From Schmidtea polychroa (taxonomy: Eukaryota): a stretch of 64,000 nt of DNA. Shown here piece after piece: positions 45,929-57,900 of the stretch. The notes under the pieces are model-generated. The model saw only the letters and a program-made list of their open reading frames with translations. It was not told the origin of the DNA and did not search any database. The position numbers were made by a program, and so were the translations under genes. Within the stretch, counting starts at the first letter, position 1, and every line of letters starts with the position of its first letter. The stretch is from NCBI GenBank assembly GCA_044892525.1, contig CM097885.1:31374001-31438000 (forward strand), read 5' to 3'.

Positions 45929-48900
45929 ATGACGAATGTCGTAAAAACCGACGAGTATAAAGAGAAGTTCAGAGGAGAACCGTTCAACGGAAATGCAAAC
46001 AAGCTAGCAACGTTCATAACTAATTTTGAAGTTTATATCACTGTGTGTGGATGGACACCCGAAGCAATTAGTAAAAGGATGCCGTTGTTTTTGTGCGATA
46101 GTGCATTAGAGGTATATTTAGAAGCTAAAGAGAGAGACACGAAATTAGAAAAGTGGGAAGATATTAAAACATTCCTGAAGAAAACCTTCGGAGCCAGTAA
46201 GCCAATCAACCAGGCGTTGGGCGAACTAGCAAATAGGAAACAAAGAGCAAACGAATCGATAACATTATATGCCAGTGAATTGCGGAGATTAGCGAAGAAA
46301 GCAATGAATGGAAAATTACCCGAAGAAAATCTGATCGGTTATTTCATAGAGGGATTACGCCGAGAAGAAGTAAGAGCCTCAGTAGGTTGTCAAATGTGCA
46401 AAACATTAGAGGAAGCCATAGATTGGGCTACAAGATGCGAGCTCCACCTTCCAGCTCAAATGAATATTATGCAAGAGGAGGGAAGGATAGCGACAGCAAT
46501 AGCGAAAGCAGATCACGGAGATAACAACAATCAAGAACCGAAAATGAATCAATTTATACCAGGAGCGCACCAAATTTTCAAACCACCACAAGGACGATCA
46601 AACGGGAATAATGGTAATCGTAACAACCAGAATAATGAGAACAATTTCAATAATCGGCGAAATATGAACGATAACAAGCAGTGCCGAACATGCGGTAAAC
46701 CAGGACACTGGGACAGAGATTGTTATAGAAATTCAAATTGTAATCGTTGCGGACGGCGTGGACATACCGAAAATGTATGCCAATTGCGAGGCTGTTTTAA
46801 CTGTGGTCAGCCAGGTCACATCTCCAGAGATTGCCGAGAAAGGGGCCAACAACAACGACCACCACAGCGAAATAATAATTATATAGCGAATCCGCAACGA
46901 CAAAGTAACCCTAACGAAGGAAAACAAATGAACGTTATGCAGGAAATTTCGCAAATGAAACAGATGATGCAACAAATGATGAGACCAAGACAAGAATCAG
47001 CACCACAACAAACCCAGAATATACGTATGATGAGGAGTACCGAAAATCTCAACAATTATGAAGTGCATCAACATGTACAAGAATGGCAAAGGCTACAGGC
47101 CGAGGAAGAGAGGATAAAACAAGAACGCAACCAACAACGACAAGAACAACCATTGCGAATAAATATGATGAGGTTAGTAAAAGACATGAAGAGCCAGTAT
47201 TGCTACAATTACGGGAAAAGCCCAAGGGTAGTACCCATGACTGAACCAGAAAAGGTAAAAGAAATAACAACGGAAATGAAAACAGAGAATTCAACCACGA
47301 TTTTAAAAGGAAACCAGAGAATTCAGAAAATATTCTGGAAAAAGATAAAGGATAAAATCGAAAAAGAACATAATAAAGCGAAAACCGAGACAGAAGATGA
47401 AAATAACAAGAGCAAGGAACAAACCAGTCAACTAAATCACCAAATGCTACAAGAATCAGAATCAGAAGAAACAACAATATTCGAAAGAAAGAAACTAAAG
47501 AGAGTACCAAGGATGAGAAACTTGCAAATCAATATGAGGAAAAGGACAAAAGATGTAGCATCGTCAGACGAAGAAGAAGATTATGTAAGTAGTTTGGGTG
47601 GAGAAATACTACAGCCGAATGAAATAAGCGAACCCCCAAAAGGGGAAATCAAAGAGGAAGAAAGCGGAAACGAGATAACCAGTGAAAGTGAAGACGAAGA
47701 TATCGAAATAAAGTTGAGAAAAGCAAGGGAGGAAGCGATAAAACAGGTAGCCGAAATACTCCCAGTAGTAGTGAGGAACCAAGAGTTCATCGACGTAATA
47801 CCATTCAGGCGATTCGTGCAAAAAGTGATGAAATTGGAAAGAAACGAGAAAGATCTAATACCAAACGAGGAAAAATCAATTATAAAAAATTATATGGAAA
47901 AAATGAAGCAGGCCGATACCACGCGGTATGTAATAAAAATTGGAACGAGTAGAGGACTTGAAAGAATATGGATAAAAAATACAGTCACCGACGAACTTTT
48001 CGATTGGATACGAGAACATTTGGGAAGTTCGAGAAAGAAAGAATATCTGTATCAATACCAAGGAGAACAGATCAAACCAGATATGCACTTAGTAGACGCA
48101 CTAATATGGCCAGGAGAAACGCAAATACTGAAGTTGCATAAAGAAAAACAACCAGCCAACCTTTACGATTGGGCTAAAGATGCCAAGGCAGAATATGATT
48201 TTAATATCAAATTGAAATTAGAACAACTAAAACAATGTACTCTGAGACGAAACCTGGATAAGCTGATCAAACAAATTCAAGAACAAGTAGAAGACAACTG
48301 GGATTTACTCATCACCAGACGAGCCCCAGCCATGTACGAACTAATGAGCCGGTTGCGAGATACAGAAATGCTCCGAATGAGTGATTGGAGAACCATAAAT
48401 TTGATCCACAAATATGGAAGGTTAAATGAAACCCAGCCACAGAGGTTGGAAATAACCATATGGTTACCGAACGAAGAAAAACGACGAATAAAAATGAGCA
48501 ATCAGAGTACAGTGGATGACTTGGTATCAAAAATAAACCAAGAGATAACAGAAAAGGTACGTAGCGAAAGTATTGATGGTATGGTGGATGATGTAGTCAT
48601 GATGTACGATAAAATAATATTACGAGCGGAGGACGACACCTCGTTAAGCGAAATGGGTATGTGGGACAATCATCAGATAATCAGGATAGTACCAATGGAT
48701 GAATTTCGAACAAGAGATGTAACCTATCAAAAAGAAATACGAGACCGGATGAAAACGTTATATCAAAAATCTACGGAAATAATTAAAATCCACCAACAAT
48801 GGTTAAAAGAAAAAGAACTACAAGGAAAAATCACGAAATTAAGCACCAGATCCTGCAGACGAACCCCATGGGAAAGAGTGTGGAATGCAGAAAATAAGGA

Positions 48901-54900: not shown

Positions 54901-57900
54901 CAGTCGAACATTCAAAAAGCACGAAAAGAACTATTCGGTAACAGAACGAGAAGCATTGGCTATAATACAAGCTATCAAACACTTCCGATATTTACTATGG
55001 GGACATGAGATATGCATAACCACAGATCATCAACCATTAGTGTGGTTAGGGCAACATAAAGAAGCGTCCAGTAGACTGATGCGATGGGCCATGCAATTGC
55101 AAGAATACTCCCCATTTATAAAATTCAAAGCGGGAAGAGCAAATGCCAACGCCGATTGTATGTCAAGATTTATTTTCCCAGATTTGGTGGATTCAGAAAT
55201 GCAACGCATATGCTTAATAGTAGCGGAAGATTTGGATTTCTGTCAACTGCGAAAGGACCAACAAGAGGACGCGGAATTAAAACAAATTATCGATTATGTA
55301 AAAACCGGAAAGACAGATGTATATGCGAAAGACCAAAAATTAAAAGAACATATGGATAAACACCGACACCGATATATTATAGAGAAAGATTGGTTACTGA
55401 TAATGGATGGGGAAAAACGATTAATGTGTATACCGGAAAACCGACGAAAAGAGTTACTAACGCAATATCACGATGGGAGATTGGGAGGACATATGTCATC
55501 GAAAAAGACGTTAGCAAGAATGAAACAGAAATATTTTTGGCCTACGTTAACTGAAGATGTAACCGAATGGGTAAAAAATTGTCTAACTTGTGCAACCAGG
55601 AAGAATACTGGATCGAAATGGAAAGCACCTTTAACGCCAATGCCAGTACCAATAGAACCAATGACAATGATATCCATGGACGTAGTTGGTCCACTACCAG
55701 AGTCAGATAAAGGAAACGTTTACATTCTAGTGATCACAGACTTTCTTACGAAATTCCCAGAAGCATTCGCGATGCCAGACCAAAAAGCTAAAACAATCGC
55801 AAAAATTTTGGTAGAAGAGATATGTTGCCGATATGGAACACCAAAACAAATCTTAACCGATCAGGGAACTAATTTTATGAGTGAGATAATGAGCGAAGTA
55901 ACAAATTACTTCAAAATAGCAAAACTAAGAACATCTCCATACCACCCTCAAACCAATGGGATGACGGAAAGATTTAATGGAACACTTATACAAATGTTAT
56001 CAAACTACGTCGACCGTCACCAACGAGATTGGGACGAATATATAAACCTATGTCTTATGGCGTACAGAATGTCAATTCACGCATCAACGAAAATGAGCCC
56101 ATTTAAATTAATGTACGGAAGAGAGTGCAACATGCCAATGGACCTGGAATACCAACCACCGATATCGCAGTATATGGAGATCGACGATTATGTTACGAGA
56201 TTCAAGGAAAGAATGCAAGAAATTTGGGAAACTGCGGGATTAAATATCAAGTTCTACCAGGAAAGTTATAAAGATTTACACGATCGAAAGAAAAACGTGA
56301 AGCAACATACGTTCCAAACAGGTGATTGGGTAATGATAGAAACCCCGGAATTAATTCCAGGAACCACAAAAAAGTTACAACGCAACGGAAAAGGACCATA
56401 TGAGATCTTATTCGTAGGCGAAACTAATGTAAGAGTGAAATTGGTAAATAACCCCTTTACCAGACCAATATACGTAAACGTGGCACGATGCAAATCAATT
56501 CCAAAAACAGCCACTAGTCAACCAGAAGGCCGTACATTAACCACACGTTCGCAAACCTACCGAATGAACATGATGCAACAACTCGCAGAACCGATCACTG
56601 GACGATTAGGTATCCAACCATCAGAAGCGGAAAAGATTGTAAAAGAAGTAAAAATTAAAATACCTGGATGGGCAAAAGATCGATTAGATTTCGAAATATT
56701 AGGAGGATTATTGACGATGATCGAGAACTATGCAAATAGAGAAAGGACACACCCATTATTGCGAGTAGTCAAAAGCCAATGGCCAATATTATTTACAATA
56801 ACAGATCATTACGGAGACACACCATTACACAAACTCATGAAAGTAGGTAACAACGAGCAAATACTAGAAACAATAGAAGCATTTCACGACTGCAAGCGAT
56901 CAACAGAACAAACAAACAACCAAGGTTACACACCATTAATGATAGCCGCAAACAGAGGCAAAACCAAAGACATTATAACCGCATTACTCGATACCGGATC
57001 GAAAATAACTACACAAGACCACGAGCGGAAAAACGCTCTACATCATGCTATCGAAGGGAGAAGTACCGAGGCGTTCACGTCATTGATGGAACTACTATCA
57101 TATGAGGACAATCGGGAAGTTGGAAACATGTATGATGGATTGTTAACAGCGATCAAAGAAAAACTGACGACAATTACCGGAATATTAATTACATGGAGAA
57201 ATCCAATTCGAAACGATTATATGATCAACGTGAACGAAGCGTTCACGAGAGGAGAGAACACGCTGATGAGAGAAGCTATGAAAGGACATCATTTATTCGA
57301 AATCCCGAATCAATTACTAGAACGAGGGATAAAATTCACAAATCATAAAGACGAACAGTTAGCAAAAAAGCGAATCGACACATTCGAAAAATCCCTATTC
57401 CAATTTACTAACCAAGTACGAAATAAATATTGGGAAACGGTAAGTGTGTTATATATGATGGACACAATGAATAACATCCGCGAGAATTACCTGGATATTA
57501 TCCAAATACTTACAGCAGAGGAACGAATCAATAATCCAAACGGAAAGAAAACGAAAATAAGGTATGAGAAATCCAGGGAATCAAAGTCAACAACGAACCA
57601 AACGGTCACAAACAACGTCATCGAAACCAAATCAATGAGTATAGATCAAGAGGCAATAATACGCAAAGCAAAAGAAGTGTTCTTTGAGGAAATGCTAGAG
57701 CTGCCAGACGAAATAATATTGTCCAAAATAATAAAAGCCGTACACACATACGCAAGAGATCAAACCACGGGTTTAGATATCGGGAAAATCAAAACCTTCT
57801 TGCCTCGAGCATTTACGATGGTAACAAAGGATTCCAGAACACCCCTACAACAAGCAATACTAGCAGCGAAAGAAAATAGAGCAATAACGATCGTGAGAAT

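Follow-up and report, generated by a model that had tools for sequence, protein, structure and literature searches.

A recurrent motif as a predicted protease site in the polyprotein of a Burro-like giant gypsy element of Schmidtea polychroa

How could a retroelement that carries gag, env, pol and additional cargo in a single frame deliver separate proteins? This question is raised by a stretch of 64,000 nucleotides from Schmidtea polychroa (GenBank assembly GCA_044892525.1, contig CM097885.1, positions 31,374,001 to 31,438,000 of the forward strand), referred to here as the window. It contains an element resembling the Burro-like giant gypsy elements (classed by its layout against Burro/GYPSM1 as reviewed; the relatives compared are unnamed records, cited by our handles). 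One open frame on the + strand (45584-59782; 4,732 codons between stops, with its first Met at 45929) encodes a polyprotein of about 4,700 residues in the order Gag-cargo-Env-protease (PR)-reverse transcriptase (RT)-RNase H (RH)-integrase (IN)-ankyrin. An initial annotation had noticed a short motif recurring ten times in this frame and taken it for a map of cleavage sites, a reading that appears largely right with corrections and is, as a whole, partly supported. The type of element and its processing by a protease are already known, and sites of such shape are usual for retroelement polyproteins. Here, the motif is predicted with good confidence to be what the aspartic protease encoded by the element recognises.

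Positions and statistics of the motif

The ten hexamers of the initial annotation are all present, once each and in frame, its coordinates referring to the second residue (P2), 3 nt past the start of the hexamer. They have the form polar-I/M-small-hydrophobic-M, and are listed here with two extra candidates.

46460-46471, +: M-N-I-M (QMNIMQ), end of the capsid; relatives ITLM, IALM, IATM, VAVL
46487-46498, +: I-A-T-A, extra candidate absent from the initial annotation, chosen after viewing the relatives (IATM, INAM)
46544-46555, +: M-N-Q-F, extra candidate ahead of the nucleocapsid (NC), chosen after viewing the relatives (VNQF, MNQF, INQF; one MKKF, one gap)
46928-46939, +: M-N-V-M (QMNVMQ), past NC; relatives VNVM, VNVI, VNMM, INVM, INVI, INLM
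47021-47032, +: I-R-M-M (NIRMMR); close relatives IHMM
47159-47170, +: I-N-M-M (RINMMR); close relatives INMM, INML
47528-47539, +: I-N-M-R (QINMRK), ahead of cargo bearing a ubiquitin-like (Ubl) fold; INML in five of five relatives
49073-49084, +: I-H-A-M (HIHAMR), ahead of helical and Ubl cargo; INVM in P0197, P0198 and P0216, the stretch being absent from P0028
53078-53089, +: I-A-A-M (TIAAMS), protease N-terminus, 27 residues ahead of the catalytic Asp; P0198 IAAL
53450-53470, +: protease C-terminal border, I-C-K-M overlapping M-N-A-V (KMNAVI); relative P0051
55208-55219, +: I-C-L-I (RICLIV), RH/IN border, 14 residues past ADCMSR; P0003 VAAI
56564-56575, +: M-N-M-M (RMNMMQ), past integrase and ahead of the ankyrin region; no direct orthologue found

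The enrichment over shuffled sequence that the initial annotation led one to expect was found. For [IM]N[MVI]M, local shuffles of 50 residues give an expectation of 0.20, and 0 of 2000 shuffles reach the 4 occurrences observed; for [IMV][NHARC][MVIAL]M, 7 occurrences are observed and 1.74 expected in local shuffles (p=0.001). Both patterns were derived from the sites themselves, so that these figures overstate the enrichment, and for this reason leave-one-out profiles were used. Seven sites rank within the top 7 of 4,725 positions in these profiles (46460, 46928, 47159 and 56564 rank 1, 47528 ranks 2, 49073 ranks 5 and 47021 ranks 7). The strict motif is real at these seven sites, and looser at the three that flank Pol.

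It is very improbable that the motifs are chance matches in linkers rich in Met, Asn and Gln, or traces of internal DNA duplication. Such an origin would be favoured by the definition of the patterns after the fact, and by a broad pattern that occurs 15 times against 6.9 expected, with some matches in folded domains; the local shuffles, the leave-one-out ranks and the ranks of counterparts in relatives, given below, argue against it. The DNA flanking the sites shows 17-50% identity, at the background level of random in-frame pairs (mean 30%, 99th percentile 53%); thus, the sites are not copies of one DNA repeat, and internal repeats were rejected as the origin of the motif. Chance is largely refuted for the seven sites, and possible for KMNAVI.

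An AlphaFold2 model of aa 430-1210 (6 sequences; predicted template modelling score, pTM, 0.39) covers five sites, all of them in stretches where the predicted local distance difference test (pLDDT) is below 50. This placement is a modest effect, 355 of the 781 residues being that low (chance about 0.02); two of the three looser non-site matches in the same model lie in folded parts. The two tighter patterns are absent from the predicted lumenal segments (0 in 559 aa and 0 in 252 aa), where the expectation is small.

Conservation and the case for a protease site

The relatives comprise a close lineage about 45% identical (P0028, P0197, P0198, P0216, P0048, P0050), a second group (P0049, P0051-56, P0057, P0175), P0047 (33% identical) and, further removed, P0003, P0004 and L001, elements that have this Env in common. 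The conservation of the motif stands for 8 of the 10 sites, which are matched at the homologous place in relatives, and is not seen for KMNAVI, not kept in P0051, nor for the IN/ankyrin site, for which no direct orthologue was found. Substitutions remain within the motif (IHAM/INVM, IRMM/IHMM, INMR/INML). A profile built each time with the site in question left out ranks the counterparts of six of six Gag and cargo sites in P0198, and of six of six in P0216, at 3-8 of 1,338-1,595 positions, and ranks IAAL of P0198 only 240 of 1,595. In four close relatives the hydrophobic residues at P2 and P2' are kept in 11/11, 11/11, 9/9 and 9/9 cases, against 43/67, 40/66, 38/65 and 41/65 for other linker hydrophobics (Fisher p 0.012 in P0198; 0.007-0.023 across the four, which are non-independent).

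Some sites deserve individual mention. The candidate I-A-T-A at 46487 has a counterpart in five of five close relatives and in P0050, and is not kept in P0049-56. The misfitting Arg of QINMRK seems private to this copy, because every contig listed over its codon (four sequencing runs; 40 of 4,288 differences listed) differs from the window. Among the same listed differences, contig X5 has M-L after I-C at the RH/IN border, a weak observation. KMNAVI had been given as the C-terminal site of the protease, which the comparison puts in doubt: P0051, the sole close relative covering it, keeps the overlapping I-C-K-M as I-C-M-L and does not keep M-N-A-V, and in other gypsy elements the next domain begins where A-V-I aligns. 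On these two grounds KMNAVI is probably out of register, and the true site would be I-C-K-M, three residues upstream. Two further candidates were discarded: L-T-P-M ahead of RT, which aligns with a strand-like stretch common to relatives, and I-N-S-L ahead of the Env signal segment, which is not kept in P0003 or P0004.

Besides enrichment and conservation, the prediction of a protease site rests on an alternation like that of Ty1, on alignments with HIV-1 PR and Ty3 RT, and on the intact catalytic motifs of the protease. The Ty1 sites VPTIN/NVHTS, IHLIA/AVKAV and TARAH/NVSTS (the slash marks the cut) have Val or Ile at P2 and P2', and polar residues at P3, P1, P1' and P3' (PMC6952103). Mean hydropathy over the ten sites is -3.5 at P3, +3.5 at P2, -2.4 at P1, +2.6 at P1', +1.8 at P2' and -2.0 at P3', with P2 and P2' hydrophobic and P3, P1 and P3' polar, as in Ty1 (PMC6952103). 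Residue 1 of HIV-1 PR aligns to aa 2502, the predicted first residue being 2501 (weak alignment, E 0.08). The RT construct of Ty3 has AVY as its last residues, with TI next, at a place immediately past the motif ahead of RICLIV. We take this AVY/TI end to be the natural Ty3 cut.

Of the 8 protease domains in four Burro-like proteins, 7 have a hydrophobic-x-x-hydrophobic core, taken with no condition on P3, 26-29 residues ahead of the catalytic Asp. Distant relatives appear to back only this looser rule, which is weaker support. Past integrase, P0003 has VAFI at the same place, ahead of its third protease domain, and P0004 only a looser motif. The motif also seems to vary by lineage, with Met at P2' here, Ile at P2' in P0003 and Phe at P2 in L001. 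Similarity among sites is higher within than between elements (0/5,000 permutations; sites picked by eye, not blind), which is the expectation if each protease drifts with its sites.

As an observation of its own, P0003 (aa 1835, 2225, 3374) and P0004 (aa 1957, 2178, 3371), from clusters of 4 and 20 sequences, have three retropepsin domains each, all with D-T-G, located before Pol, at Pol and after integrase.

Several points weigh against a protease site. TIAAMS, KMNAVI and RICLIV, which flank Pol where a gypsy protease must cut, fit worst (ranks 41, 78 and 551), and the top non-site scorer, S-N-M-M at aa 2277, lies inside the Env ectodomain. All the close relatives belong to a single lineage, and matches that are not sites but lie in folded domains are conserved as well (MHLV, IRIV). 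The window profile misses the border sites in P0003 and P0004, and a fixed rule with a polar P3 recovers one of three protease N-termini in each of them and the RH/IN border in neither. The same core at 26-29 residues is found in only 3 of 14 other gypsy protease entries (scorpion-like gene models, several of them chimeric-looking). Unlike in Ty1 (PMC6952103), P1' is hydrophobic here and P2' is mostly Met; a hydrophobic P1' would therefore mean a variant specificity. No orthologue of the IN/ankyrin site carrying ankyrins was found, as searches with the junction gave 17 unrelated ankyrin proteins or nothing, and viral contigs gave nothing. Finally, the stretch that separates the dUTPase-like region from RT shows no clear site.

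Taking into account that the polyprotein contains ubiquitin-like folds, and the element RING and TRAF open reading frames (ORFs), the motif might instead be a short strand for binding, perhaps to the ubiquitin/SUMO-like domains of the element itself or in Gag self-assembly, and never be cleaved. The strict motif clusters in the half that holds Gag and cargo, and several sites open a predicted helix. Nevertheless, looser versions stand exactly at the protease N-terminus, past RNase H and past integrase, and lineage-specific variants suit a reader encoded by the element, which makes a binding strand quite improbable. SUMO-interacting motifs consist of Val, Ile or Leu with acidic flanks, unlike the cores here, which are rich in Met and flanked by basic or amide residues.

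Domains, predicted products and cargo borders

The domains of the polyprotein, against which the sites are to be placed, are as follows.

46082-46363, +: retrotransposon Gag (capsid), aa 167-260; Pfam PF03732, E 3.2e-9
46679-46837, +: three CCHC zinc knuckles (NC), from sequence; two stretches pass Pfam PF00098
47534-49078, +: predicted 515-residue product, helical parts with ubiquitin-like fold(s); AlphaFold2 pTM 0.39, Foldseek ISG15/SUMO/Ubl E ~5e-4
49151-49618, +: helical domain and ubiquitin-like domain; Pfam ubiquitin E 0.02, Atlas leads under 0.9
50102-50680, +: putative Bcl-2-like domain, weak here; Pfam PF00452 E 0.063, Bcl-xL (PDB) E 1.3
50720-50779, +: signal-peptide-like hydrophobic segment ahead of Env, aa 1713-1732; by eye, under the hydropathy cut-off here
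50783-52549, +: Env, mononegavirus-type fusion glycoprotein, best stretch aa 1983-2322; Pfam PF24664, E 5.5e-70
52460-52516, +: Env transmembrane segment, aa 2293-2311; hydropathy
53117-53392, +: aspartic protease with intact D-T-G-A and G-T-D, aa 2512-2603; Pfam PF00077, E 1.8e-9
54056-55108, +: RT and RNase H; Pfam, Ty3 Gag-Pol E 4.7e-121
55430-55948, +: integrase zinc finger and core; Pfam
56852-58102, +: ankyrin repeat blocks; Pfam PF12796, E 2.6e-17
58781-58837, +: second signal-peptide-like hydrophobic segment, aa 4400-4418; hydropathy
59585-59641, +: C-terminal transmembrane segment, aa 4668-4686; hydropathy

Ty3 Gag-Pol is the closest solved relative of Pol, and the order PR-RT-RH-IN is that of Ty3/gypsy elements (Metaviridae). 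The helical and ubiquitin-like module at 49151-49618 is homologous to modules in L001, and its helical part is found also in P0047. The Bcl-2-like region gave a low-confidence model (pLDDT 42) with no fold match, and the Atlas search with it returned nothing; the interval between PR and RT holds a region of about 100 aa, homologous to its counterpart in relatives and with no Pfam match. The labels Bcl-2-like and dUTPase-like for these two regions are taken from a review (PMC6431247). The signal-like segment ahead of Env exceeds the hydropathy cut-off in P0003 and P0004.

Other features of these regions were also observed. An AT-hook-like G-R-P motif at 50072-50086, ahead of the Bcl-2-like region, is kept in P0028, P0198, P0216, P0003 and L001. 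In L001 (3058-3060), one TGA separates Gag-Ubl-AT-hook-Bcl-2-like from the Env signal segment and Env, which continue in frame; this is either a readthrough or a lesion, on one contig. A furin-like R-E-K-R at 51512-51523 in the Env ectodomain is not evident in P0003 or P0004. The end of the polyprotein (58781-59641) forms a unit of signal segment, lumenal domain and transmembrane segment, with the same topology in P0003 and P0004 and an unrelated-looking lumenal sequence. The position at which the polyprotein starts is uncertain: close relatives have 200-300 residues ahead of the capsid, the frame here opens at 45584 (region 45282-45930), and near 45611 some aligned sequencing contigs differ in length from the window.

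The location of the motifs at domain boundaries, as initially proposed, is borne out by Pfam and PDB matches at the capsid end, the NC end, the protease start, the RH/IN border and the integrase end, but not at 47021 and 47159, which separate short low-confidence helices rather than domains. Neither is the motif the border of every module, as Env is bounded by a signal-peptide-like segment instead.

We infer that each four-residue core of the Gag-cargo-Env-Pol-ankyrin polyprotein would be cut at its midpoint by the element's own protease, after I/M-x and before hydrophobic-M. Gag would give a capsid of about 179 aa (counted from Met116), spacers of 9 and 19 aa and an NC of 128 aa; past NC, short peptides of 31, 46 and 123 aa would be followed by the 515-aa ubiquitin-like protein. 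The next product, a helical-Ubl-AT-hook-Bcl-2-like protein, would remain joined to Env after the protease step. Pol would yield a protease of 124 aa, a dUTPase-like and RT-RH protein of 586 aa and an integrase of 452 aa, leaving an ankyrin tail of 1,070 aa. Since Env and the second, C-terminal membrane protein both start with signal-peptide-like segments, host signal peptidase is predicted to release them, which would leave a hydrophobic anchor at the end of the Bcl-2-like piece and of the ankyrin piece. The ten or more products foreseen by the initial annotation thus become 11-13 predicted pieces of plausible size in the best reading, although no clear site lies ahead of RT. The idea that the cargo modules are separate products needs correction, as the helical, Ubl, AT-hook and Bcl-2-like parts would form one piece and no site occurs in the last 1,070 residues.

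To what extent the cargo itself belongs to the processing scheme is a matter of its borders. Conserved sites at 47528 and 49073 agree with the initial proposal that it does; however, only three sites flank cargo (47528, 49073 and 56564), and most sites are usual gypsy cuts or release short spacers. It could therefore be argued that only the usual gypsy cuts are used (capsid/spacer/NC, protease ends, RH/IN), the motifs at cargo borders being slow, relic or host-protease sites and the cargo remaining mostly fused. The lack of a site between the helical-Ubl part and the Bcl-2-like part, and of any in the ankyrin tail, the polar P2' at 47528 in this copy and the missing orthologue of 56564 would all be in line with this. 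Against it, the motif fits better at the cargo borders (ranks 2, 5 and 1) than at the Pol sites, conservation of the border sites extends to relatives of only about 33% identity (INML in P0047), and the 49073 site persists with no cargo behind it in P0197, P0198 and P0216. A restriction to the usual cuts is, on balance, unlikely.

These three relatives all lack the helical and Ubl module that follows the 49073 site here, and they overturned the suggestion, drawn from P0028, that this site travels with its cargo. In P0047, which has a MATH domain in the cargo region, I-S-V-L stands between MATH and the same helical domain, and in L001 F-A-V-V stands in front of the same helical and Ubl module (both by eye). 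The cargo borders thus seem, from these alignments, to behave like sockets. Returning to cleavage by the element's own protease, a virus-like programme with two proteases can be tentatively proposed for Burro-type elements, at somewhat less than an even chance as a whole. In it, the element's protease would cut fixed linker sites that serve as sockets for swappable cargo that manipulates the host (ubiquitin-like, MATH/TRAF, Bcl-2-like, ankyrin or extra protease domains), while host signal peptidase would free Env together with the second membrane protein. The Bcl-2-like protein and the ankyrin protein would be left tail-anchored in membranes, like cellular Bcl-2 proteins.

Planarian genomes contain Burro elements in abundance, and these are suspected of interfering with host apoptosis and ubiquitination. 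BURRO1 RNA increases upon smedwi-2 RNAi (PMC8532177). If true, the processing would turn the ubiquitin-like, putative Bcl-2-like and ankyrin cargo into proteins of their own. Tests of such meddling with the host need the products of the 500-kDa precursor to be known; the conserved predicted map names mature products and their ends, so that cargo proteins can be produced and assayed one by one, and it suggests how separate parts can arise from a gag, env and pol that share a frame.

Neighbouring DNA and comparison with known systems

Around the large frame, a 74-nt tandem repeat in five copies (44184-44618) and a RING ORF (43091-43597) lie upstream, and a TRAF-like ORF with RING, zinc fingers and MATH (60340-61776) lies downstream. 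Accessory ORFs on the same strand (59916-60302, 61919-63025, 63125-63883, 41440-42234) are mostly coiled-coil-like and belong to no firm Pfam family. Elsewhere in the window, positions 19600-33000 hold a unit of about 6.4-6.5 kb in tandem duplicate, rich in TAA microsatellites, whose 300-nt probes are 100% identical (19870/26405 and 22937/29381), and two related minus-strand remnants at 3157-6045 and 16037-17534, 74-77% alike over short stretches, look like the RT region of another retroelement. Among the other records, P0047 and P0090 have MATH or TRAF-like zinc fingers fused within the polyprotein, and P0024 is an unrelated gypsy-like polyprotein of 3,327 aa with several enzyme-like modules ahead of Pol (Pfam PF08719).

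Long paired LTRs and a total length over 30 kb mark the Burro/GYPSM1 group. Its polyprotein of about 4,900-5,100 aa has Ubl, a Bcl-2-like domain, ankyrins and an Env placed in frame after gag and before pol, and the section of the review devoted to Burro is silent on polyprotein processing (PMC6431247). In the literature searched, which includes parts of PMC11410931, PMC8532177 and PMC6431247 (primary Burro descriptions and supplements lie outside it), no published Burro cleavage map was found. The element described here shares with Burro/GYPSM1 a single polyprotein of about 4,700-5,100 aa, a Gag with three CCHC knuckles at the N-terminus, a mononegavirus-like Env in frame between gag and pol, Ubl/SUMO-like cargo (Foldseek E ~5e-4; Pfam E 0.02), ankyrins, TRAF/MATH cargo, upstream tandem repeats and PR-RT-RH-IN. 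It differs in that MATH is found in the separate downstream TRAF-like ORF, and not in ORF1 or upstream. No BIR domain was found by Pfam in the eight window proteins scanned, the element continuing beyond the end of the window.

With respect to the yeast elements, Ty3 Gag3 is cut at 207 and 233, 26 residues apart (PMC6525542), which the predicted capsid-spacer-NC layout here parallels, with a candidate spacer of 28 residues against 26. As in Ty1 and Ty3, the predicted cuts fall past the capsid, past a short spacer, at the protease N-terminus and past RNase H. Unlike them, there are 10-12 predicted sites, compared with 3 in Ty1, and they are also located at the borders of cargo foreign to retroelements. 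Ty3 has about 5-6 cleavage sites.

Polyproteins of the flavivirus and alphavirus type are cut by a viral protease together with host signal peptidase. Although the enzymes and the type of genome are unrelated, which limits the analogy to the working principle, the element would resemble them in having the protease motif at cytosolic borders and internal signal sequences ahead of lumenal proteins.

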